Part shown: positions 3,587 to 20,884 of the stretch, one piece after another
Layout of the letters: each line of letters begins with the position of its first letter
Position numbering within the stretch: position 1 is the stretch's first letter
Assembly (NCBI GenBank): GCA_902553005.1
Contig: CACDIK010000002.1
Span: 19,615-83,614 of the forward strand
DNA length: 64,000 nucleotides
Reading direction: 5' to 3'
From: an uncultured Alphaproteobacteria bacterium
GTDB taxonomy: Bacteria > Pseudomonadota > Alphaproteobacteria > HIMB59 > GCA-002718135
Notes under the pieces: generated by a model
Told to the model about the DNA's origin: nothing
What the model saw: only the letters and a program-made list of their open reading frames with translations
The model's database searches: none
Made by a program: the position numbers and the translations under genes

Positions 3587-5509
3587 ATGGAAATCAAAGA
3601 ACAATGGCTTAAAAATGCAAAAGTAGATGAAGAAAAATATTCTTCAATGTACAATCAATCGCTACATAACAATGATGAATTTTGGTCTGAACAAGCAAAT
3701 AGAATTGATTGGATAAAAAAATTTACAAAAATCAAAAATGTAAAATATTCTAAAGATGATGTGAGTATTAAATGGTTTGAAGATGGTAATCTTAATGTTT
3801 CTTATAATTGTATAGATAGATATGCTAAAAGTAGTCCTGATAGAACCGCAATAATTTGGGAGGGTGATGATCCTAATGAAACAAAAAAAATAACTTATAA
3901 AGAGCTATTATTAAATGTATCAAGAGCAGCAAATGTACTTAAAAAAATTGGTGTAAAAAAAGGTGATAGAGTAACCATATATTTAACAATGATACCTGAG
4001 TTAGCGTATATAATGTTAGCTTGTGCAAGAATTGGAGCTGTACACTCAATTATATTTGGAGGTTTCTCCGCAGAGTCTATTGCTGGTAGAATTAAAGATT
4101 GTCAATCAGAGTATATTGTAACCGCTGATGAAGGAGTAAGGGGTGGCAAAACCATTCCTTTAAAATTAACAACAGATAAAGCACTAGAATCATGTCCCGA
4201 TGTTAAGAAGTGTTTAATTGTTAAAAGAACAAATAAAGAAATAAAATTAATAAAAGACAGAGATTTATTCTATGATGATGTTCTTAAAGAAGTTAATGAT
4301 TTTTGTGAACCAGAAATTCTAAATGCTGAAGATCCATTATTCATTTTATATACATCAGGATCAACGGGTAAGCCAAAAGGGGTAATGCATACATCAGGAG
4401 GTTATATAGTTTATGCTTCTATGACTCATGAATATATTTTTAACTACAGTGATGGCGATATATATTGGTGCACTGCGGACATAGGATGGATAACTGGTCA
4501 TAGTTACATTATTTATGGACCTCTTTCTAATGGAGCTACAACTTTAATGTTTGAAGGAGTTCCAAACTATCCTGACTTCTCAAGATTTTGGCAAATAGTA
4601 GATAAACATAAAGTAAATATTTTTTATACTGCTCCAACTGCAATTAGAGCTTTAATGAGAGAGGGTGATGATTACGTAACTAAAACTAGTAGATCATCAT
4701 TAAAGCTTTTAGGAACAGTTGGTGAGCCTATAAATCCAGAAGCATGGAAATGGTACTTTGAAATTCCAGGTAATTCAAATTGTCCAATTGTTGACACTTG
4801 GTGGCAAACTGAAACTGGGGGAATATTAATATCTCCTCAAACTGGTGCTATAAAATTAAAACCTGGTTCAGCTTCAAAACCATTTTTTGGTATTGAACCA
4901 TGTATTGTAGATAAAGGTGGTAATGAACTAGAAGGGGAATGTGAAGGAATGTTATGTATGAAAAAATCATGGCCCGGCCAAATGCGAACAGTTTATGGTG
5001 ACCATAAAAGATTCATTGATACATATTTTTCGCAATTTGATGGAAAATATTTTACGGGTGATGGATGTAAAAGAGATAAAGATGGCTATTATTGGATTAC
5101 AGGTAGAGTCGATGATGTAATTATTGTTTCTGGTCATAATCTAGGTACAGCAGAAATAGAAAGTGCCTTTGTTTCTCATAAAGATGTATCTGAAGCAGCG
5201 GTGGTGGGCTACCCTCATGATATTAAAGGTAATGGTTTATATTGTTATGTTTCCTTAAAGGTGGGTATAGAAACGTCTGATGATTTAGTACTAGATTTAA
5301 AAAAAACTATCAGAGAAAAAATAGGTCCAATTGCAACACCTGATTTTATACACATCACTGCTGGTTTACCAAAAACTCGATCAGGCAAAATTATGAGAAG
5401 AATTCTGCGAAAAATTGCCTGTAATGATTTTGATAATTTGGGAGATACATCAACACTAGCAGACCCATCAGTTGTTAATGATTTGGTTAAAAATAGAAAA
5501 AATAAATAA
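3587..5509 (+). CDS. acs: Acetyl-CoA synthetase
   Basis: [41 protein letters not shown]. Confidence 0.97.
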
Positions 5510-11337: not shown

Positions 11338-11787
11338 TATATTTATATTATAAATTAATAAATTTTTTTATAAATTTTAAAATATGGTCTAATAATTTAA
11401 AATTAGTATTAATATTTAAATTCTTTAATTACCTTATGTAAGATAGGTTTTTTCCCTAAATAAAGTGCATAAAAGTTTAAACCTATCTATTAATTATACA
11501 TCTTGATTTTAAGACATAAATAAACATAGATTATCGAATTTAATAAAAAATAGATTTATTTAAGTTATTTGAATTAATATACTTATTAACAAAAAATTAT
11601 GATTAACAATTTTAATTCTGCATAATATTCCAAATTTGCTATAAATTTATGTGATAAAAAAATATTTTAATATGAAATATTTACTATTTGCATTTAATAT
11701 TGGAGGAAAAATTTTTTTGACTTTTTATCAATTTAGTAGATTAAAAACTACTTGGATTAATTTACAATTAATGCTGCGATAATTGCC

Positions 11788-12504
11788 TTGATCAATTTTA
11801 TTTTTTTTTATGTGGATACTAAAAAGGGCTACTTGTCTGAAAGACACAGAGGTATTGAGCGCGAAAACATTGATCTGTTTATTAAATCTATAAGAAAATA
11901 TCATATTGAATCAACAATTATTCACTGTACTGATAAATTTACAAAAACTTTTAAAGATGTTGATATAGTTCATAGAGAGAAATTTGATTTAAACCACATA
12001 ATGTTTGGTAGAGTAAAATGTTTTTCAAGTTTTCCTATTAATAAATCATCAATTTATTTAGACCCTGATATGCTTGTAATGAAAACAATACCTGTAAAAT
12101 TATTTGAAGAAAAGGCTGATGTTTTCTTATTAAAGAGAAGTTTTGATTTAACAGATATAATGCCAACTACATTTAGAAAACTAGAATTTCCAAATCACAA
12201 AAATAAAAATTTGGAAAATATCTATCCTTTTATTGGTTGTTTTGTTATCCTTAAGAAACAAAATTTCTGGTTAGAGTGTCTAAACTATTATGAAAATCTT
12301 AGTGAAAATTATAAAAATTGGTTTGGTGACCAAGAAATATTTAAAAGGTTAGTAGAGGAAAATAATTATAAATTTGCTTTTTTAGAAGAAAAAAATTTTG
12401 CATGCCCTCCACAGCATCTGAGTGGAAAAGATAGGCCATTTATAGTTCATTTTAAAGGTAAATATAATAAGGAATTAATAAAAAAATATTTTGAATTTGT
12501 TTAA
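11788..12504 (+). CDS. Putative GT-A glycosyltransferase (nucleotide-diphospho-sugar transferase-like)
   Basis: DxD motif (YLDPDML), WFGDQE, IVHFKG; TTG start. Confidence 0.65.
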   Translation: MINFIFFYVDTKKGYLSERHRGIERENIDLFIKSIRKYHIESTIIHCTDKFTKTFKDVDIVHREKFDLNHIMFGRVKCFSSFPINKSSIYLDPDMLVMKTIPVKLFEEKADVFLLKRSFDLTDIMPTTFRKLEFPNHKNKNLENIYPFIGCFVILKKQNFWLECLNYYENLSENYKNWFGDQEIFKRLVEENNYKFAFLEEKNFACPPQHLSGKDRPFIVHFKGKYNKELIKKYFEFV

Positions 12505-12539
12505 AAAATTAAATTAAATAATTAGGTACAAATTACAAT

Positions 12540-12745
12540 TTAGTTAAAGAAAATATAATATAGATTTATTAAATTCATTTTGTAAAACGTATATATTTGC
12601 AAGGTTTATATATGCTTTATTATTTTTACTATTTAACTCAATTGCATTTAAAAAAAGTGATTTTGCTTCATCAAAATTACCTACTTCTTGGTTTTTTAAC
12701 CCTATCATTAATTAATACTTTATAGTTATTTTTATTTTTTAACAT
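12540..12745 (-). pseudogene. Frameshifted, truncated TPR-protein remnant
   Basis: MLKNKNNYKVLIN, frameshift, then IGLKNQEVGNFDEAKSLFLNAIELNSKNNKAYINLANIYVLQNEFNKSILYFFN*. Aligns by eye with the N-terminus of 13550..15172 (NYKNLIENG...SYINLANVYIMQ). Confidence 0.65.
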
Positions 12746-12796
12746 TTTCTATTTACTAAAAAAATTTAAGATATATTTTCGTATGATAAATAAATC

Positions 12797-13393
12797 ATGT
12801 CTAATCCTAATCTTTTCTTCTCTACACCTGTTTGGGTTTCTACAATAAATAATTATAAAGAAACTAATGAAAAAATATATCATTACATTAAGAATTTACA
12901 AAATGAGGATAACAAAGGAATAATTCGCAGTAATGTTAAAGGGTGGCACTCCAACAATTTTAATTTAGAAGATGAAAATGTAATTGAATTTATTAATTTG
13001 ATTTCTCCAAATATTAACAACGTTTTAAATGATATGAATTGGGATATATCTAAACAAAGAGCAAAGATATCAGCTATGTGGGCAATAATTAATATAGGAG
13101 GAGCTTCCAATTCTAGACATCATCATGGAAATAGTGACATAAGTGCTGCATATTATGTAAGAGCACCTAAAAATTGTGGTGAGATTGTTTTTTATGATCC
13201 AAGACCCGCCCCAGTATACTTTCATCCATTATCAACAAAACCAAACAGTTTAAATGCTATGCAGAATGCCGTAAATCCAGTAGAAGGTGGTTTAGTACTC
13301 TTTCCTAGTTATTTAGATCATTCAGTAAATCCAAATCTCAGTAATGAAGAAAGAATTGTGATAAGTTTTAATCTAAATTTAGTTAGGAAATAA
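12797..13393 (+). CDS. Putative 2OG-Fe(II) oxygenase (TIGR02466-like)
   Basis: FFSTPVW, SNVKGWHS, HHHGNSDISAAYYV, LFPSYLDHSV, ERIVISFN. Confidence 0.88.
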   Translation: MSNPNLFFSTPVWVSTINNYKETNEKIYHYIKNLQNEDNKGIIRSNVKGWHSNNFNLEDENVIEFINLISPNINNVLNDMNWDISKQRAKISAMWAIINIGGASNSRHHHGNSDISAAYYVRAPKNCGEIVFYDPRPAPVYFHPLSTKPNSLNAMQNAVNPVEGGLVLFPSYLDHSVNPNLSNEERIVISFNLNLVRK

Positions 13394-13549
13394 ATATTTT
13401 AAGATTAAAATCTTTTTTGATACAGGATTAAGATTTCCAAACATTAAAAGATAAGTAAAATTCGAGGATAATCCATCTTTTGTTTAAGCTAAAATATTGA
13501 ATTATTTTTTAATTGATAGCATGTTAATAATAAATAAAAGAAAGTATTC

Positions 13550-15172
13550 ATGAATTATAAAAATCTAATTGAAAATGGAATTAAATATGCACAAAAAGGA
13601 AAGCTTATAGAAGCTGAGAATAATTTTAAGAAAGCTATTGAAAAAGATTCAAGTCTTACTGATTCATATATAAATTTGGCCAATGTATACATAATGCAAA
13701 GAAGAGTTGAAGAGGCAATTAATTTATTAAAGACTTACTTAAAAGATATATCTTTTAATCAAAATATCATTGGTCATTTTTGGAAAATTAGCCAAAATTT
13801 TAATAGAGAAGAAAAGTTCTTTGAAATAATTAGTTCCTATGAAGATTCAAAAACTCTGAATAAAAAAGAATTGGCTTACATATATTATATACATGGAAGA
13901 TATTGTGCCAAATTAAATGACATTGAATTGTCAATTAAATATTTTAAGAAGTCTATATTTTTTGATGAATTGTTTACGGATAGTTACATCAATCTTGTAG
14001 ACTGGTTAGAAAGAATAAATGAAATTTCACAAGCAAACTTATATTTAAATAAGTTTAATAATGTAGTAAAAAAAATTGATTATAAAATAAAGTTTTTTGA
14101 AGCATTATTATTGTCAAGAGTAAAAAAATTTAAAGCATCTGAAAATATTCTAAATAAATATAAATTAGAAAAATATTTCGAGAAAGATAAATATTATTAC
14201 ATTAAACTATTAAATCTTAAATCGAAAAATAATGAAAGGTTAAGAAATTTTTCAATAGCTTATAATTCAATTGTGAAAAGAAATTTATTTTTATCTAACT
14301 TAGAAGAAAATCAAAAAATTGATAGAGGTGATATTAATCAAACCATACAAAATTATAAAAAAGTTTACACAAAACATAATAAACATTTTGATATAAATAA
14401 ATTAAAAATAGGTAAAAAAATTGACCTCGTTTTTTTAATTGGATTTCCAAGATCAGGAACTACATTACTAGATACTATATTGCGTACTCATTCAAAAACA
14501 CTTGTTTTAGAGGAGGAAATTTATCTTGAAAATACAAGAAATTATTACTTTACTTCTAAAAATAATAGACTTGACGCAATAAAAAATATTTCACTAGAAG
14601 AAGTAATAAATTTGCGCAAACATTATTTTGATCAAATAAATATTGATTATAAAAATATAATAACTGTAATTGACAAACTACCTCTTACAATTACAGAATT
14701 GGGATTTGTAAAAAAAATTTTTCCAGATGCTAAAATAATTCTAGCATTAAGACATCCATGTGATGTAGTTATAAGCTGTTTTTTTAGCTCTTTCAAAATG
14801 AATAGGGCGATGATTAATTTTTTGAGTATTAAAAACACAGTAGACTTTTATAATAAAGTATTAGATCTATTCGAATTTTATGAGAATGAGTTAGATCTTG
14901 AAATTATAAAAATAAAATATGAAGATATTGTCTTCGATTTTGAAAATGAAACAAAAAAATTATTTAAATTTTTAAATCTTGAGTATGAGGAAGATATTAA
15001 TAAATTTTATGAAACTGCTCAAAGTAGAAAAATGATATCAACACCAAGTTACTCACAAGTAACTAGCCCTATATATTCAAGTTCTATTGATAGATGGAAA
15101 AATTATGAATCGTTAGTTAAAATTGAAAAACCGTTAAGAAAATGGATAAAAAGACTGAATTATTTAAACTGA
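13550..15172 (+). CDS. TPR-containing sulfotransferase family protein
   Basis: N-terminal TPRs; PAPS loop GFPRSGTTLL, DKLP, RHPCDVVISCF, YEDIV, TPSYSQV. Confidence 0.9.
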   Translation: MNYKNLIENGIKYAQKGKLIEAENNFKKAIEKDSSLTDSYINLANVYIMQRRVEEAINLLKTYLKDISFNQNIIGHFWKISQNFNREEKFFEIISSYEDSKTLNKKELAYIYYIHGRYCAKLNDIELSIKYFKKSIFFDELFTDSYINLVDWLERINEISQANLYLNKFNNVVKKIDYKIKFFEALLLSRVKKFKASENILNKYKLEKYFEKDKYYYIKLLNLKSKNNERLRNFSIAYNSIVKRNLFLSNLEENQKIDRGDINQTIQNYKKVYTKHNKHFDINKLKIGKKIDLVFLIGFPRSGTTLLDTILRTHSKTLVLEEEIYLENTRNYYFTSKNNRLDAIKNISLEEVINLRKHYFDQINIDYKNIITVIDKLPLTITELGFVKKIFPDAKIILALRHPCDVVISCFFSSFKMNRAMINFLSIKNTVDFYNKVLDLFEFYENELDLEIIKIKYEDIVFDFENETKKLFKFLNLEYEEDINKFYETAQSRKMISTPSYSQVTSPIYSSSIDRWKNYESLVKIEKPLRKWIKRLNYLN

Positions 15173-15221
15173 AATTTCCATTTGGGTAAGTGAAACTTTT
15201 GAAACTAACCCGCTCAATATT

Positions 15222-15272
15222 TGGAGCGGGCGAAGGGTTTCGAACCCTCGACTTCAACCTTGGCAAGGTTGC
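15222..15272 (-). repeat. Displaced 3' part of tRNA-Gly(GCC); att core direct repeat
   Basis: 51-bp copy of 16507..16557 with one mismatch (15238 T vs 16523 A, in the T-loop); it covers the anticodon arm to CCA and lacks the 5' end and D-arm. Confidence 0.92.
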
Positions 15273-15346
15273 CTAATAGAAATAATTTGTAATTTCCTTC
15301 AAATTATGTGAAATAATTTTAAAACAAGTTTAGTTTTTGTAATCGA

Positions 15347-15368
15347 AGTGTCCCCCATATGTCCCCCA
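15347..15368. repeat. Tandem TGTCCCCCA x2 (11-bp period), putative integrase arm-type site, left
   Basis: AGTGTCCCCCATATGTCCCCCA; the first 20 nt match 16451..16470 at 18 positions, same orientation. Confidence 0.7.
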
Positions 15369-15392
15369 AAAGAGAGATCTTTGAGCTATTGA

Positions 15393-15426
15393 AGGCAACA
15401 ATTCTGAAAGGCAACAGAGAGGCAAA
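15393..15426. repeat. Three AGGCAA direct repeats
   Basis: AGGCAAC at 15393 and 15409, AGGCAAA at 15420, in non-coding DNA next to the arm-type repeats. Confidence 0.5.
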
Positions 15427-15462
15427 TTCTTATTTTTTTATAATCATACTTTGTCCTGATTA

Positions 15463-16290
15463 CTAAATATAATTAAAATGCTTCATTAACGTTTTTAAAT
15501 TATTTTCTATAAGCCCAAGCTTTGTTTTTGATAAAATATCTTTCCATTGATTTGATGTTCCGGATCTGAAAAATCTTGAATGTTCTGAAGATTCATCAAA
15601 ACCATATTTATTTTCTATTTTTTTAAGATTATTAAAATTAGTATTTTCTATTGTTTGATCAATGTCTGCGTCACTTAAATTGAGCTTTATTCTGTGCGTT
15701 TTATTTAAGAATTCTATAACTTTAATAACTACTTCCTTTATATTTACCTTTAAGTCTTCATACCTAATAATTAATCTGGGTACAGTTTTATAATTTAACC
15801 ATGATAAAACATTAAGCTCCCAAGTAGAAATTAGTTCATAAGCACCATTTGTATTAATTATGTTTTTTTTTTCAAAAAGAAGCTCATTAATTATTTTATC
15901 TAAACTTTTGCCGCTAAAATTTTTAAAAGAAATGACCACATCCCTTGGGTCTCTTATAATATAAATAAAACCTGCATTTACAGTTTCATTTGTAAATTTT
16001 TTATGTCTAACACTATGGGTTTTAAATATATTTAAGTGATTTGATTTCTTATTTAGTATTTTTTGACAATCAATAATATTTTCTGATACCCAGTCAAAAT
16101 GCAAAACATTGTTGTCAGAATAGATTTTATTTTCAAATTCATCAAAGTTTTTTTTAATTGACAATAATGGTATTGACTTTAAGGTTTTTAGATTAAACTC
16201 TTTATCAAAATTATAAAGGTTTGAAATTATAGCTCTCATCCATGTATTGCCAGATTTAGGATATGAAGCCAAAAAAATATTTTTAAACAC
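15463..16290 (-). CDS. Sulfotransferase domain protein (Sulfotransfer_1 type)
   Basis: LASYPKSGNTW, KTH, YIIRDPRDVVIS, RYEDL, FFRSGTSNQWK; GTG start. Confidence 0.92.
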   Translation of the reverse strand: MFKNIFLASYPKSGNTWMRAIISNLYNFDKEFNLKTLKSIPLLSIKKNFDEFENKIYSDNNVLHFDWVSENIIDCQKILNKKSNHLNIFKTHSVRHKKFTNETVNAGFIYIIRDPRDVVISFKNFSGKSLDKIINELLFEKKNIINTNGAYELISTWELNVLSWLNYKTVPRLIIRYEDLKVNIKEVVIKVIEFLNKTHRIKLNLSDADIDQTIENTNFNNLKKIENKYGFDESSEHSRFFRSGTSNQWKDILSKTKLGLIENNLKTLMKHFNYI

Positions 16291-16419
16291 TTAAAATATT
16301 TAGGAAGAAATTTCTAAATAAAAATTTCAAATTTAAATATTTATTTTTTTTAATAAATATAATTACTAATTTTAAAAATTTATATCTGGTAATGAAATTA
16401 ATTATTATATTTTGTTTAA

Positions 16420-16432
16420 AATCAAGGTGTTG
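16420..16432 (+). promoter_or_regulatory. IHF-binding consensus
   Basis: AATCAAGGTGTTG matches WATCAANNNNTTR exactly, with an AT-rich tract upstream, 18 bp from the right arm-type repeat. Confidence 0.5.
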
Positions 16433-16450
16433 TATTATTTTGATATATGG

Positions 16451-16470
16451 AGTGTCCCCCAATTGTCCCC
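16451..16470. repeat. Tandem TGTCCCC x2 (11-bp period), putative integrase arm-type site, right
   Basis: AGTGTCCCCCAATTGTCCCC, 36 bp from the tRNA CCA end. Confidence 0.7.
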
Positions 16471-16506
16471 GGAGATTTTAAAATAATATGAATTTAGTAT
16501 ATTTGT

Positions 16507-16581
16507 TGGAGCGGGCGAAGGGATTCGAACCCTCGACTTCAACCTTGGCAAGGTTGCGCTCTACCCCTGAGCTACGCCCGC
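16507..16581 (-). tRNA. tRNA-Gly (GCC)
   Basis: GCGGGCGTAGCTCAGGGGTAGAGCGCAACCTTGCCAAGGTTGAAGTCGAGGGTTCGAATCCCTTCGCCCGCTCCA; cloverleaf, anticodon GCC, encoded CCA. Confidence 0.97.
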
Positions 16582-16591
16582 TTGAAATACA

Positions 16592-16619
16592 CAATTACCA
16601 TTTTGAATTTATAAGTCAA
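16592..16619 (-). promoter_or_regulatory. Putative sigma70 promoter for tRNA-Gly
   Basis: TTGACT-N16-TAATTG on the minus strand just upstream of the tRNA. Confidence 0.4.
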
Positions 16620-16635
16620 TATTTGAGAAAACGAT

Positions 16636-17454
16636 TTATTTAAATCTTCTTCTGTAGACAATATCAACAAGTAACATATGAGGAAGCGTTAAAGCAGCGA
16701 GTCCAATGAAAATTACTTTTAATATCGACTCATATAATGATAAATTTTGGACTAAATAATAAACAATTAATAAACCTCCAATCCAAGAAATTACTGTAAA
16801 AATTATTGTGGAGTAAATAACAAAGTATTTATTTTGTAAATTTAAATAAATATTTTTAATCAGATGTTTTAAATGTTTGTAAGTGTGAAAAAAACAGAAA
16901 TATATAGCGAAGCTTAGTAATGGATCGAAAAAATAAAAAATTAATAAAAGAAATATAATCTCAATAATTCCTTTTCGTAATTTCTTTTCAAAGAAAGAGA
17001 GATAAACAAAATATATTATAGATAATAATGTTAAAAAATATGGGATGAAAAAAAATTTTTGGATTGAGTAAATATTATTATTTGTCAGATATTCAAATAT
17101 CAAAAAAGATTGATCTTCGTTGAAAAATATTATTCCAAAAATAATAGTCATTCCATAAGTAAAGCTTATAGAATACTTGTATTTATTTATTTTAAAATTT
17201 GTCCAATCACATAATCCAAAATGGGCAATAGTCATTATAATAAAAATCGTTAATGAAATAATAGGAAAATATAACCAAAATAAAATGACTAGAAAAAATA
17301 AAATTAGGTAGTAAAATAAAAATTGTAGAAATTGAATTCTGTTATTAAAACCTACTAAAGAAGCAACAGCACCATCAAATGAACCATGTGGAAGACCAAT
17401 GAAAAAAATTAATAAAAAGGAAATAATATTTAAAATTGTTAGGTCTGCTAACAT
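16636..17454 (-). CDS. blh: Beta-carotene 15,15'-dioxygenase (Brp/Blh)
   Basis: Polytopic membrane protein with GLPHGSFD, HFG, YFCFFHT, LAALTLPHM; last gene of the crt operon. Confidence 0.95.
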   Translation of the reverse strand: MLADLTILNIISFLLIFFIGLPHGSFDGAVASLVGFNNRIQFLQFLFYYLILFFLVILFWLYFPIISLTIFIIMTIAHFGLCDWTNFKINKYKYSISFTYGMTIIFGIIFFNEDQSFLIFEYLTNNNIYSIQKFFFIPYFLTLLSIIYFVYLSFFEKKLRKGIIEIIFLLLIFYFFDPLLSFAIYFCFFHTYKHLKHLIKNIYLNLQNKYFVIYSTIIFTVISWIGGLLIVYYLVQNLSLYESILKVIFIGLAALTLPHMLLVDIVYRRRFK

Positions 17455-17455
17455 A

Positions 17456-18538
17456 TCATTTAAATAACTCTTTTATAAAAGGAAGCTTGGGCATGCTATT
17501 TATAATTTTTAACTTAGTTAATAAATTCGATTCACCCATCATAAAACTTTGGAATTCTTTTCCATTTAGATTAGATGCGAGTTTTATAAATGACCTTCCA
17601 TCTTCTCTATTATTTTTTAAAAAATTAATAAAAACTTTATCCATTTTTCTTTCTAAAAAATTATGTATATTTACATAATTGTTCTTTGAATTTTTTAACA
17701 ATTGAATTTGTTTTATAAGAAATGAAAAAGCATATCCAGTAGAGGGTTTGCAAGCACCTCCTCTAATACCAATATTGAAGATTTTAGAATTAACTGATTT
17801 TTTTTCCCCTGCAAAAAACATTGGTATTACCCCTTTTTCTGAACTCTGTTCTTTAAAATTATTAATATTATTTTTCTTTAAGTAATCATTTATTCTTTCC
17901 CTATACCAGGAACTGTGAAAGACATCTTTTGAAAAGACCGTCGATTCAACAAGCGCTTTATTGTGACTAAATGGTAGGATGTATATAAAATGCAAAATAT
18001 TATTTTCTTCCGTAAAGTGCATCAAGGTTAATTTATCTTCATTAAAAGTATTATCTGCCACGGTAATATGAATTCCAAAAAAATGTTGTAATAATTCATC
18101 TTTTTTTTCTTTTGCTGATCGTGAATCATATATTTTTTCAGCGTAATATATTTTATCATCAGTAGTGATTATTTTAAAATAATTTTTTTCAGGAAAATAT
18201 TGGACAACTTGTTTGTTTATAATTTTTAAATTATTTTTTGTTTCTAGGCAAAATTTTTTCCAAGTTTTAAAACTAATGACACAGTAAGGTTTATCCAAAC
18301 TTGTATGTGTTACATTGGTATTTTTGTTGCCAATACTCCATTTGTACCATTTTTTTTCAATAATTTTTTCAAATGGCTTCATCCAATCTGTTAACCAAAA
18401 ACCAAAAATATTATCTCTTTTGTTTGTATCTTCACTTTCAAATGCAATAATTTCGTTAAAACTATCTCCGTAAAGAATTTTATTTACAGCTAAACCACTA
18501 GGGCCTAACCCAATTATAGCAGCTTTATAAATTTTCAT
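17456..18538 (-). CDS. crtY: Lycopene beta-cyclase
   Basis: GLGPSGL FAD motif, LLQHFFG, FIYILPFS, ALVESTVFS, EKGVIPM, KPSTGYAF. Confidence 0.92.
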   Translation of the reverse strand: MKIYKAAIIGLGPSGLAVNKILYGDSFNEIIAFESEDTNKRDNIFGFWLTDWMKPFEKIIEKKWYKWSIGNKNTNVTHTSLDKPYCVISFKTWKKFCLETKNNLKIINKQVVQYFPEKNYFKIITTDDKIYYAEKIYDSRSAKEKKDELLQHFFGIHITVADNTFNEDKLTLMHFTEENNILHFIYILPFSHNKALVESTVFSKDVFHSSWYRERINDYLKKNNINNFKEQSSEKGVIPMFFAGEKKSVNSKIFNIGIRGGACKPSTGYAFSFLIKQIQLLKNSKNNYVNIHNFLERKMDKVFINFLKNNREDGRSFIKLASNLNGKEFQSFMMGESNLLTKLKIINSMPKLPFIKELFK

Positions 18539-19406
18539 TTGGGAGATTATCTCTAATTTTTTGATACTGATATTTCATAAAAGGGATAAAAATAAAAAGT
18601 AAAATTGATTTAGCTGTAATTAAAGATTTCTCTAATAAGTTTAAATATACCCTTTCTCTTAAATATTTTTTTTTATTGGATTTTATCTTAATACCAATCC
18701 CTCTATAAATATTAGCCGCAATGAATATTCCTAGTCTTGTGGATGGTGGGATATACTTTAAACCAGCAAAACCATTTTTATAAAACATATCTGAAAGGAC
18801 TATTACTTCATGAATTGCATTTGATATTCTTTCATCTTTTTCTGAGCTTTTGTTATGAAGATCAGTTAAATTTTCTAGTGATATATCAGGTATCCAATTA
18901 GCAGGTAAATATATTCTTTTCATTTTGGAATCTTCATAAACATCTCTAGCTATATTTGTTAGTTGCATTCCAATACCTAAATCAATTGCAGATTTTGCTG
19001 CTTTTTCATTTTTTACTCCTATAATTTTAGACATCATTAATCCGACAGTTCCGGCAACATGATAAGAGTATTTTATAAGTTCTTCCTTGTTTTGAATTCT
19101 TGTTTTTTTCTGATCCAAAATTAATCCCTCTATTAAGTCTATAAAAATTAAATTGTTAATTTCATTTTTTTGCAAAAAAATATTTACTTTATTATTTTTA
19201 TTGGTCTTTATTTCTTCAATTGAATTTTTGAGATAGATAGTTTGATCTTTGTTGTGTTTATCAGCAATATCATCAAAATATCTACAAATTGAATATAGAA
19301 TACCAGCATTTTTTTTTGAACTTTTTGGTAAAAAAAAACTTGCCCAATAAAAACTTTTACCTTCTCTTTTAAGGTCAGTCGACGAATTTAGTTCTAAATC
19401 AATCAT
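18525..19406 (-). CDS. crtB: Phytoene synthase
   Basis: KSFYWASFFL, CRYFDDIAD, YHVAGTVG, QLTNIARDVYED, RIYLP. Confidence 0.95.
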   Translation of the reverse strand: MIDLELNSSTDLKREGKSFYWASFFLPKSSKKNAGILYSICRYFDDIADKHNKDQTIYLKNSIEEIKTNKNNKVNIFLQKNEINNLIFIDLIEGLILDQKKTRIQNKEELIKYSYHVAGTVGLMMSKIIGVKNEKAAKSAIDLGIGMQLTNIARDVYEDSKMKRIYLPANWIPDISLENLTDLHNKSSEKDERISNAIHEVIVLSDMFYKNGFAGLKYIPPSTRLGIFIAANIYRGIGIKIKSNKKKYLRERVYLNLLEKSLITAKSILLFIFIPFMKYQYQKIRDNLPNENL

Positions 19407-19408
19407 TG

Positions 19409-20884
19409 TTATTTTAATTCAGATTTGATGATATTTTCAACAACTTTAGCTGAGGAAAGAACACCTGGTATTCCAGCCCCTGGATGTGAGCCTGCTGCAG
19501 AAAAATATAAATTTTTAATTTTTTTGTCTTTGTTGTGATATCTAAACCAAGCTGACTGTGTAAAAATTGGGGCTATAGAAAATCCTGCTCCGTGCATAGA
19601 ATTGTAATCGTTTTTAAAATCTTTAGGGTTCATCCAAAAAACATCTGTAATACTCTTTTCTAAATCTGGCATAATTGTTTGTGATAATTCTTTAACTATC
19701 TTATTTTTAAGGTTTTCTGATTCAACATCCCAATCAATTTTGCCTTGTAAATTGGGTACTGGGCATAGAACATAAAAACTATCACATCCTTCTGGAGCAA
19801 ACGATTTATCAGTTGCGGTAGGCCTATGAATATATAAAGAAAAATCTTCAGATAATATTTTATTTTTAAATATATCATGAAGTAAAGATTTAAATCTTTC
19901 AGTCATCCAAATAGTATGATGAGCAACTTTATGGTATTGTTTTTTCGTACCAAAGAAAAGAACAAAAAGCCCCATTGAATACAATAAGTTTTTTTCTTTT
20001 AATACAGGTCTTTTTAAATTTTGTTTTTTTAAAAGTTTAGAGTAAACCATGGGTGGATCAGCATTACAAACAACTAGATCTATATTAGAAATCTCTTCAT
20101 TGTTTGTTAATATTTTTGTTATCCTATTATTTTCCACAATAAATTCTTTTGCCTCTGTATTTGTTTTTATTTTAATACCACAATCAATCATTAATTGTTT
20201 TAGTTCAGATACAATTTTACCAGTTCCGCCCATACAAAAAAATACGCCCCATTTTCTCTCTAAATAATGAATCAAAGCGTAAATAGATGTTGTTGTGTGT
20301 GGATCACCTCCAACTAAAAGTGGGTGAATTGAAAATGCTTTTCTAAGATATGGATTTTTTAGATAACTATTTACAAGTTGAGATACTGTGAAATAACTTT
20401 TTAAAATAATTAAATTAGGAATAACACCTAACATTTTAAAAAAAGAAATAAATGGTTTGTCAGCTAATTGTGTGAACCCTACATCAAAAATTTTTTTTGA
20501 TTGATTTAAGAGTTTAGAATATCCTTTGATGTCTCTATTATCATATTTGCTTATTTCATTATTTGTCTTTTCGATAGTAGAACAATAATCAAAAGTTTTA
20601 CCATCATGAAAATAATATCTATACCAGGGCTCAAGAGGAACAAAACTCAAATAATCTTCTCTTTTTTTCCCAAATAGACTAAATAATTCATCAAAAAGAA
20701 ATGGTGCTGTTATAACTGTTGGTCCAGCATCATGTTTAAAACCATTCACTTCAAAAACTCTTGCTCTTCCTCCAAGCTCGTCTAGTTTTTCAATAATTGT
20801 TGTATCATAGCCTAATTTTTTTAGTCTTAGACTAATCGCAATACCTCCAAAACCACTTCCTATAACTACTGCTTTTTTTCCCAT
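19409..20884 (-). CDS. crtI: Phytoene desaturase
   Basis: VIGSGFGG, DAGPTVIT, LLVGGDP, QSAWFR, HPGAGIPGVLSSA. Confidence 0.96.
   Translation of the reverse strand: MGKKAVVIGSGFGGIAISLRLKKLGYDTTIIEKLDELGGRARVFEVNGFKHDAGPTVITAPFLFDELFSLFGKKREDYLSFVPLEPWYRYYFHDGKTFDYCSTIEKTNNEISKYDNRDIKGYSKLLNQSKKIFDVGFTQLADKPFISFFKMLGVIPNLIILKSYFTVSQLVNSYLKNPYLRKAFSIHPLLVGGDPHTTTSIYALIHYLERKWGVFFCMGGTGKIVSELKQLMIDCGIKIKTNTEAKEFIVENNRITKILTNNEEISNIDLVVCNADPPMVYSKLLKKQNLKRPVLKEKNLLYSMGLFVLFFGTKKQYHKVAHHTIWMTERFKSLLHDIFKNKILSEDFSLYIHRPTATDKSFAPEGCDSFYVLCPVPNLQGKIDWDVESENLKNKIVKELSQTIMPDLEKSITDVFWMNPKDFKNDYNSMHGAGFSIAPIFTQSAWFRYHNKDKKIKNLYFSAAGSHPGAGIPGVLSSAKVVENIIKSELK

Follow-up and report, generated by a model that had tools for sequence, protein, structure and literature searches.

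Streamlined bacteria such as SAR11 have large, open pangenomes, and almost no canonical mobile elements have been reported in them (PMC11796062). The origin of islands is usually put loosely, as a phage that integrates and then decays (bioRxiv 10.64898/2026.04.03.716430), while islands of the additive type have been ascribed to ‘illegitimate recombination’ (PMC4898812), as far as the available passages of these three sources go. Here we analyse a stretch of 64,000 nucleotides from an uncultured alphaproteobacterium of the HIMB59 lineage (genus GCA-002718135; contig CACDIK010000002.1, positions 19,615 to 83,614), referred to below as the window, in which a 1285-bp unit with a single sulfotransferase gene is bounded by a tRNA-Gly(GCC) gene and a partial copy of its 3′ half. 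This unit is very probably an integrase-less member of a family of elements at this tRNA that keeps the layout of a phage attachment site (attP). The locus gives the idea of phage integration followed by decay a concrete anatomy, in which a single tRNA core is shared by many orthogonal arm classes, autonomous members stand next to miniature ones, and individual genes have apparently passed between lineages with breakpoints at the cores.

As in the attP of phages lambda, P2 and P4, a stretch of about 200 bp combines a core with arm repeats on either side of it. The core corresponds to the bacterial attachment site (attB), since 51 nt of the tRNA-Gly 3′ half stand at both junctions with one mismatch, and, at the level of sequence, repeats distinct from the core are present on both arms. 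The difference lies in the partners of the site, as no cognate integrase, Xis or host-factor sites were identified for the sulfotransferase unit. An integrase with an arm-binding N-terminal domain that would match its TGTCCC-type arms was not found, the unit’s own genome being 57% complete, whereas sister arm classes at the same tRNA have such integrases.

The array in which the unit stands also has described counterparts. The additive flexible genomic islands of Alteromonas and Methylophilaceae resemble it in their tRNA hot spot, in cassettes that vary between strains in number and kind, in their partial tRNA repeats, and in nearly identical cassettes found in divergent genomes (here 98.4% identity against 85.6% in the flank, with the same tendency in 13/66 pairs). 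Cassette arrays marked by partial tRNA repeats have likewise been noted in four SAR11 islands. The passages available on additive islands give no mechanism for cassettes without an integrase and mention neither paired arm repeats nor arm classes or their co-variation, though the supplements may hold more. In the tycheposons of Prochlorococcus (bioRxiv 10.1101/2020.12.28.424599), according to the available part of that preprint, elements with tyrosine recombinases sit at tRNA genes, neighbours are parted only by a partial tRNA, and newcomers push older elements into the island, where fragmented integrases and stray partial tRNAs are found, all of which is seen here as well. One element of our arrays (interval 3 of locus L037, with an integrase and an 868-aa DUF5906 protein) resembles their satellite-like type. 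The sulfotransferase unit itself encodes the sulfotransferase only and so lacks the tycheposon hallmarks, a deep-branching tyrosine or serine recombinase together with a replication module; the same part of the preprint mentions neither SAR11 nor Pelagibacter, and uses neither ‘arm’ nor ‘non-autonomous’.

Integron cassettes share with these units the formation of arrays of small, often single-gene units that lack a recombinase of their own. To that extent the preliminary description of this locus was justified in calling it integron-like, but the comparison goes no further than an analogy between arrays: the window contains no integrase, no attI lies beside the array, cargo open reading frames (ORFs) occur on both strands, and the repeat is a tRNA fragment accompanied by double-stranded arm repeats, apparently in place of an attC hairpin. 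[quoted passage not shown] Structurally, the sulfotransferase unit is of this kind, being att-flanked, integrase-less and in tandem with integrase elements, although the integrase elements observed next to it are of other arm classes. CIMEs differ in that they are conjugative elements of Firmicutes, whereas the units described here are tiny, reside in a streamlined alphaproteobacterium, fall into many classes on one tRNA core and have no evident transfer machinery.

Known pelagiphages integrate at tRNA-Cys, tRNA-Leu and tRNA-Arg, and ‘Pelagibacter, resolved’ makes no mention of tRNA-Gly, partial tRNA or attachment. In the literature searched, to which supplements may add, we found no paired class-specific arm repeats, no case of many classes on one tRNA core, no concerted switch of arms and no one-gene units with conserved arms. 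Judged against these sources, as far as they were available, tRNA cassette arrays, tandem accretion and integrase-less att-flanked elements are known already, and what is new here is the pairing of arm classes, the arm switch and the one-gene family.

The sulfotransferase unit beside tRNA-Gly(GCC)

The tRNA-Gly(GCC) gene at 16507-16581 on the reverse strand is the only tRNA gene in the window (ARAGORN; Rfam tRNA, 70.9 bits), and an Rfam scan of positions 12000-20000 found this tRNA and no other RNA family. Repeat comparison revealed a 52-nt direct repeat (15221-15272 and 16506-16557) that is 98% identical, with one mismatch and a start-to-start spacing of 1285, in agreement with the preliminary description, which had placed a copy of the tRNA 3′ end at this distance. 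The block shared by both copies runs from the 3′ end of the tRNA through the whole anticodon stem-loop. We refer to the partial copy, at 15222-15272 on the reverse strand, as the distal core, and to positions 16507-16557 of the intact gene as the proximal core. No further core-like copy was found within the window, even when 18 of 51 mismatches were allowed.

Inside both cores, a motif search located a GC-rich tandem of two TGTCCCC repeats with an 11-bp period, AGTGTCCCCCATATGTCCCC at 15347-15366 and AGTGTCCCCCAATTGTCCCC at 16451-16470, both on the forward strand and 18/20 identical. We take these to be putative arm-type integrase sites. They lie 74 nt inside the left core, across a left-arm spacer (15273-15346), and 36 nt inside the right core, across a right-arm spacer (16471-16506). 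The 20-nt tandem has just these two matches in the window at up to three mismatches, and none of 100 shuffles gave any. All four TGTCCCC heptamers of the window sit within the two sites, but the heptamer count alone is weak evidence, as four were reached in 7/100 shuffles. An 18-mer form of the pattern, at up to two mismatches, again matched these two places only across the 1,032,072 bases of the assembly to which the window belongs (1.03 Mb, about 27% G+C), so that the paired tandem reported in the preliminary description is unique in the genome as assembled.

Between the tandems lies a single ORF at 15463-16290 on the reverse strand, encoding a 275-aa sulfotransferase (Pfam Sulfotransfer_1, E 2.6e-26). 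One tandem is 160 nt upstream of this gene and the other 96 nt downstream; the AT-rich, non-coding stretch on the upstream side (16291-16450) reads as a presumed promoter region. The sulfotransferase is thus the only cargo, as first described, and no recombinase is encoded in the window. The single match to PF00589 in the assembly is on another contig (C55, the window being on C2), and a search of the same assembly for serine recombinases (PF00239) returned no match.

Cassette arrays and matched arms across the genus

A search with the tRNA together with its neighbouring beta-carotene dioxygenase gene found extra 51-nt cores near the tRNA in many relatives. In a census of the core at up to three mismatches, tallied by hand over 101 genomes of the genus, which are kin to one another and are mostly incomplete single-amplified genomes (SAGs), 52 had two to five copies, 32 had one and 17 had none assembled. 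We then compared 61 loci, comprising the window and 60 fetched stretches (47 picked for several cores and 13 for one). These contain 74 core-to-core intervals of 479-13788 bp, with zero to four cassettes per locus and every core in direct orientation. The cargo of the small cassettes, which is found on both strands, includes an HNH nuclease, a LexA-like repressor, 2OG-Fe(II) oxygenases, an FkbM methyltransferase, an alternative oxidase with a flavodoxin-like protein, a McrB-like protein, an RNase T-like exonuclease, type I restriction-modification subunits, a PLD nuclease, an MFS transporter and DUF4268. With restriction-modification, nuclease, oxidase, transporter and methyltransferase genes side by side, the cargo is not mainly surface-modifying, which does not favour the earlier suggestion of a shuffling of surface-modifying genes.

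The sulfotransferase cassette itself recurs, as an interval of 1259-1287 bp, in 7/61 loci and in three metagenome contigs. It adjoins the tRNA in the window, L034, L035, L036, L107 and L110; in L037, L038, L039 and L111 it is more distant from the tRNA and is parted from it by other cassettes. When the window was compared with L036, the two differed at 0-4 positions per 100 bp within the cassette (98.4% identity), at 7-26 positions per 100 bp beyond the tRNA (16622-17921), and to the left of the cassette the neighbours were wholly different; L107 shows the same step in divergence at the tRNA. The reverse discordance was seen with L034, where the flank is 94.5% and the cassette 76.9% identical to the window. 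Among 66 comparable pairs, the cassette was the more similar by more than 5 points in 13, the flank was the more similar in 32, and the two lay within 5 points of each other in 21. Because divergence changes abruptly at the tRNA and the identities of cassette and flank are discordant, the cassette appears to have a history separate from that of the chromosome, and the cores mark the boundary. This supports the view that the cassette behaves as a self-contained module passed horizontally between lineages, with its breakpoints at the cores.

Within the cassette, different parts have diverged to different degrees. When the window lineage is set against that of L034, L035 and L039, identity amounts to 69% in the gene (about 60% at third codon positions), 78-80% in the non-coding DNA upstream of it (the lineage-typical value; one copy is lower) and 75% in the right-arm spacer, whereas it reaches 93-95% in the left-arm spacer and 90-95% in each of the two motifs. 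The right motif is kept in 9/9 aligned cassette copies. The arms, being better conserved than the gene, therefore look constrained, as far as alignments can tell.

Similar arms are found throughout the arrays. Nearly every interval carries, on both arms, a short motif in direct orientation with a period of about 11 bp, set inward of the core by 31-86 nt on the left (median 66) and by 32-92 nt on the right (median 54). We sorted these motifs into 15 classes, including TGTCCCC, TGTCCCG, GTGGGAC, TGTCACA, TGTCGGA, GGCTAC, GGAGCG, CTACTGC and GGAGACG. Counting as a match a shared motif that contains G+C, scores at least 10 and has at least five G or C, the left and right arms of one interval matched in 45/74 intervals. 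The two arms that flank one core, and so belong to different elements, matched in 0/24 cases, and random pairs of non-homologous arms in 39/1343. These counts are not independent, as the genomes are kin, and the contrast is one between classes rather than copies. The arm-core-arm layout recurs in cassettes of all sizes at tRNA-Gly, those with an integrase included, and this recurrence, together with the co-variation of the arms, bears out the arm-core-arm reading put forward in the preliminary description.

That description had also called for a search for different cargo between the same repeats. The exact TGTCCCC motif was seen solely with sulfotransferase cargo, but its sister class TGTCCCG comprises seven cassettes with six unrelated cargo families. 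Their 95-nt left arms are 88-99% identical when pairs with L080_1 are set aside (against the others, the left arm of L080_1 reaches only 78-81%). Where the cargo differs, no alignment of the cassette middles is possible. A further variant concerns the sulfotransferase cassette: four homologous cassettes (L042, L043, L044 and L048), whose gene is about 67% identical, carry GTGGGAC repeats on both arms and still show, within the new right arm, an eroding remnant of the TGTCCCC pair. With GTGGGAC on both sides and the old motif eroding further in, it seems that both arms were replaced, and that it is the outer, matched pair that stays intact.

Integrases, decay and competing explanations

A local profile search of 214 ORFs found nine full tyrosine integrases in the 74 intervals, three of them confirmed by Pfam, and five fragments. 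The TGTCACA class holds six of the nine. In this class, 6/10 elements (5-14 kb, with cargo that includes type III restriction-modification genes) start with an integrase of 314-347 aa, and the other four members, of 2.0-3.1 kb, have none. The TGTCACA integrase is 36-39% identical to integrases of temperate phages. Its AlphaFold model is poor overall (mean pLDDT 61), with residues 1-50 at pLDDT 71-86 and modelled as three strands followed by a helix; residues 1-159 align best to residues 14-175 of full-length lambda Int (1z1b_A, Z 13.8, 152 aligned, rmsd 9.1). Since these related integrases are modelled with a lambda-Int-like N-terminal part, we read the tandem repeats as probable arm-type integrase sites, a reading we hold with good confidence, and by analogy the repeats of each class would bind an integrase of corresponding specificity through its N-terminal domain.

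Elsewhere in the genus, integrases have a comparable setting. Outside the arrays, they adjoin tRNA-Leu(CAA and TAA), tRNA-Arg(ACG), tRNA-Gln(TTG), tRNA-Val(GAC) and the transfer-messenger RNA (tmRNA) gene in nine loci (L113, L115, L118, L121-L124, L126 and L128), and in seven of these nine (not L121 or L122) a tandem of their own, again with an 11-bp period, lies 13-65 nt past the 3′ end of the RNA gene.

On this basis we propose that elements with lambda-type tyrosine integrases would insert in the tRNA-Gly(GCC) 3′ half, from the anticodon stem-loop to the 3′ end, and would pile up head to tail, each insertion leaving a 51-nt copy of the tRNA. The 1285-bp unit would keep all that an attP needs in cis, that is, a core at each junction and a pair of repeats 11 bp apart on each arm; without a recombinase, it is most likely non-autonomous. 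A matching integrase, supplied by a passing element of the same arm class, would cut the unit out and re-insert it core to core in trans; alternatively, the unit may be carried along with a neighbour in the array, by accretion, as for cis-mobilizable elements. Where no helper is present, it would decay in place. Taken as a whole, this account of a non-autonomous mini-element with an arm-core-arm, attP-like layout that is moved in trans is one that we favour with some reserve. Three parts of it are inferred: binding of the repeats by an integrase, a site-specific mode of movement, and the existence of a helper. Whether the unit is still moved site-specifically in trans we regard as an evenly balanced question, because homologous recombination anchored in identical cores would also place the breakpoints at the cores.

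A number of observations weigh against continued mobility. Integrase fragments of 82-130 aa stand alone in five intervals of the GGAGCG class. Outermost cores have at least one mismatch in 20/50 cases, with up to seven, compared with 5/24 and a maximum of three for inner cores. The outermost copies of the sulfotransferase cassette (L037_1 and L038_1) have degraded left arms, in L038_1 together with the left core, and in interval 2 of L039 former cassettes have fused and lost their cores. Arrays thus appear to be built at the tRNA and to erode further out, and, given such decay, the unit could simply be a remnant. Moreover, arms beside the cores outlast any internal deletion, so that their mere presence is no evidence of function, and their high identity could reflect recent shared ancestry through mosaic recombination rather than selection.

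The helper integrase that the preliminary description had expected beside the same core and arms was also not found in any collection searched. Among the 101 genomes of the genus, the TGTCCC-type arm pattern gave 23 matches in 15 genomes, all on contigs with tRNA-Gly arrays and none in an integrase-bearing element; among 185,579 species representatives, the arm-plus-core pattern identified ten loci, all in SAGs or metagenome-assembled genomes of the same genus, and no helper. The same pattern matched six short contigs in one scan of metagenome contigs, none with an integrase, and phage records queried with the right arm and tRNA matched through the tRNA part only. An exact 37-nt core scan of viral contigs gave two matches, L054 and L055, and nothing relevant: L054 (43% G+C) has no full core, L055 (62% G+C) shares just the tRNA, and neither looks related to the genus. 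In the cassette-bearing genomes G081 (88% complete) and G077 (78%), the conserved chromosomal recombinase was the only one found. Interval 2 of L039 was considered as an integrase-bearing sulfotransferase element and rejected, since it is a composite in which a sulfotransferase copy and the remnant of a GGCTAC cassette are followed by an integrase element of the TGTGACC class. Finally, neither joint expected from movement (16506 to 15273, or 15221 to 16507) was found in the Logan contigs of four of 18 runs, whose pieces, mostly of 90-630 nt, are too short to show a circle or an excision; the same contigs show many variant neighbours of the core.

Much of this would be explained if the unit were the passive remnant of a larger integrase element, left after internal deletion and spread by RecA-type recombination that is anchored on the tRNA and the 51-nt cores and no longer involves any site-specific step. 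Such a history would account for the fragmented integrases, for the more mismatched outer cores and for the lack of a cognate integrase for TGTCCC arms in the collections searched, and identical cores used as anchors would also set the breakpoints at cores. Recombination is high in SAR11, which adds to its plausibility, but a 51-nt anchor is short for efficient homologous recombination. A purely passive history is also hard to reconcile with a right motif that has held at 90-95% identity, against 78-80% and 75% in the non-coding DNA that flanks it and far less in the gene; with two arms that switched class jointly in the GTGGGAC variant, whose old internal motif is eroding; and with six TGTCCCG cargo families that share a near-identical left arm and contain no integrase fragment. 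We consider this explanation a real but rather unlikely one. A narrower version, in which the unit is a one-off remnant, had been named at the outset as what would undo the proposal. Relatives do carry larger integrase elements at this tRNA, as that version would have it, but these are of other arm classes, and the sulfotransferase unit recurs at 1.26-1.29 kb.

Two other explanations dispense with an element-borne integrase or with recombination altogether. The conserved chromosomal tyrosine recombinase of the C55 type might act on the tRNA-derived cores, much as host Xer proteins move dif-flanked modules. It occurs once in about 71/101 genomes, the window’s own included, and scores far below the cut-offs for Xer. 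One recombinase, however, cannot account for 15 arm classes that co-vary within cassettes, its gene lies on other contigs, away from the arrays, and the arrays contain lambda-type integrases of their own; we judge this very improbable. The position of the motif copies, 160 nt upstream and 96 nt downstream of the sulfotransferase gene, might instead suggest an operator, promoter element or terminator unrelated to recombination. Against such a regulatory role, equivalent motif pairs of other sequence accompany unrelated cargo in either gene orientation, the pairs keep fixed distances from cores and not from genes, and similar 11-bp tandems lie 13-65 nt past the 3′ end of other tRNA and tmRNA genes with integrases nearby, which leaves it scarcely credible.

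The trans-mobilized mini-element that we favour hints at how tiny genomes swap accessory genes. If miniature units do move in trans, the most abundant bacteria of the ocean would have in them an inexpensive means of passing on defence, surface and metabolic genes. In a broader and more tentative version, SAR11-type cells would run a tRNA-anchored cassette exchange, in which one-gene cassettes with an arm ‘address’ (at least 15 classes on one tRNA-Gly core) are taken up, cut out and re-dealt in trans by the matching lambda-type integrases of visiting satellites or phages and re-armed by a joint switch of both arms. We offer this as a speculation that, if true, would mean modular, recombinase-free shuffling of accessory genes in genomes said to be without canonical mobile elements. 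The arm motifs also provide a simple marker with which to find cassette boundaries and helper integrases in metagenomes.

Flanks, neighbouring genes and related loci

In L084 and L086 (2/61 loci), the tRNA adjoins a type of flank that is found outside the outermost core in nine other loci (L034, L036, L039, L041, L053, L063, L073, L075 and L077), which makes these two the best candidates for empty sites. The empty sites sought in relatives are therefore represented by candidates only. This flank contains two or three CTATATTG-like motifs with an 11-bp period, both outside the outermost cores and where it adjoins the tRNA in L084 and L086. With such a tandem in an apparently native flank, the ‘chromosomal’ side may be the arm of a very old, fixed element. 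In four of the 61 loci (L048, L052, L057 and L069) there are two full-length copies of tRNA-Gly, implying that some elements bring a whole tRNA rather than the 51-nt part.

In the window, the 17 nt just outside the distal core (15205-15221, reverse strand) are an exact match to the core-proximal end of the right arm in interval 1 of L052. Flank of this type adjoins the tRNA directly in L009, L025 and L026, and metagenome contigs carry on at 15186 with full GGAGCG-type arm sequence. Judged by this match, a GGAGCG-class arm once stood here, of which deletion has left just these terminal 17 nt.

From position 1 to about 11400, the window is conserved backbone (65-91% identical in relatives). It is followed, at 11400-15221, by a semi-variable zone up to the distal core, with a 2OG-Fe(II) oxygenase (12797-13393) and a TPR-sulfotransferase fusion (13550-15172) among genes that are rearranged, inverted or absent in relatives; this zone possibly represents an earlier layer of the island that has become fixed. 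On the other side, genes of the retinal pathway adjoin the array (16636-19406, reverse strand), of which the beta-carotene dioxygenase and lycopene cyclase were identified by Pfam and a third ORF was taken as phytoene synthase from its sequence alone. These retinal genes and the G+C content of about 27% are among the grounds on which we take the organism to be SAR11-like.

The C55 recombinase of the window’s own genome is a tyrosine recombinase of 352 aa (locus L003, 479-1537, reverse strand). Proteins of this type, of 352-365 aa, are present as a single copy in about 71/101 genus genomes by hand count (profile span about 3-169, 52-67 bits) and score far below the cut-off of every named Xer model, and a second PF00589 match was not seen in most genus genomes. 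The protein may be the only chromosome-dimer resolvase of the genus, or something else.

At the tmRNA gene in L126 there are two motif pairs (815/4031 and 4171/4828), which suggests two successive elements. On the viral contig L055, around position 4318, an identical tRNA-Gly is followed, about 10-25 nt past its 3′ end, by a tandem GGGAC pair, so that many Alphaproteobacteria may share this mode of attachment. Marine metagenomes contain sulfotransferase homologues in great number (2190 clusters at 90% identity, E ≤ 1e-10). Among the 120 homologues listed, most are exactly 275 aa long and most lie on contigs of about 0.9-1.7 kb, which is near the size of the cassette, as would be expected if assemblies break at the repeated cores.

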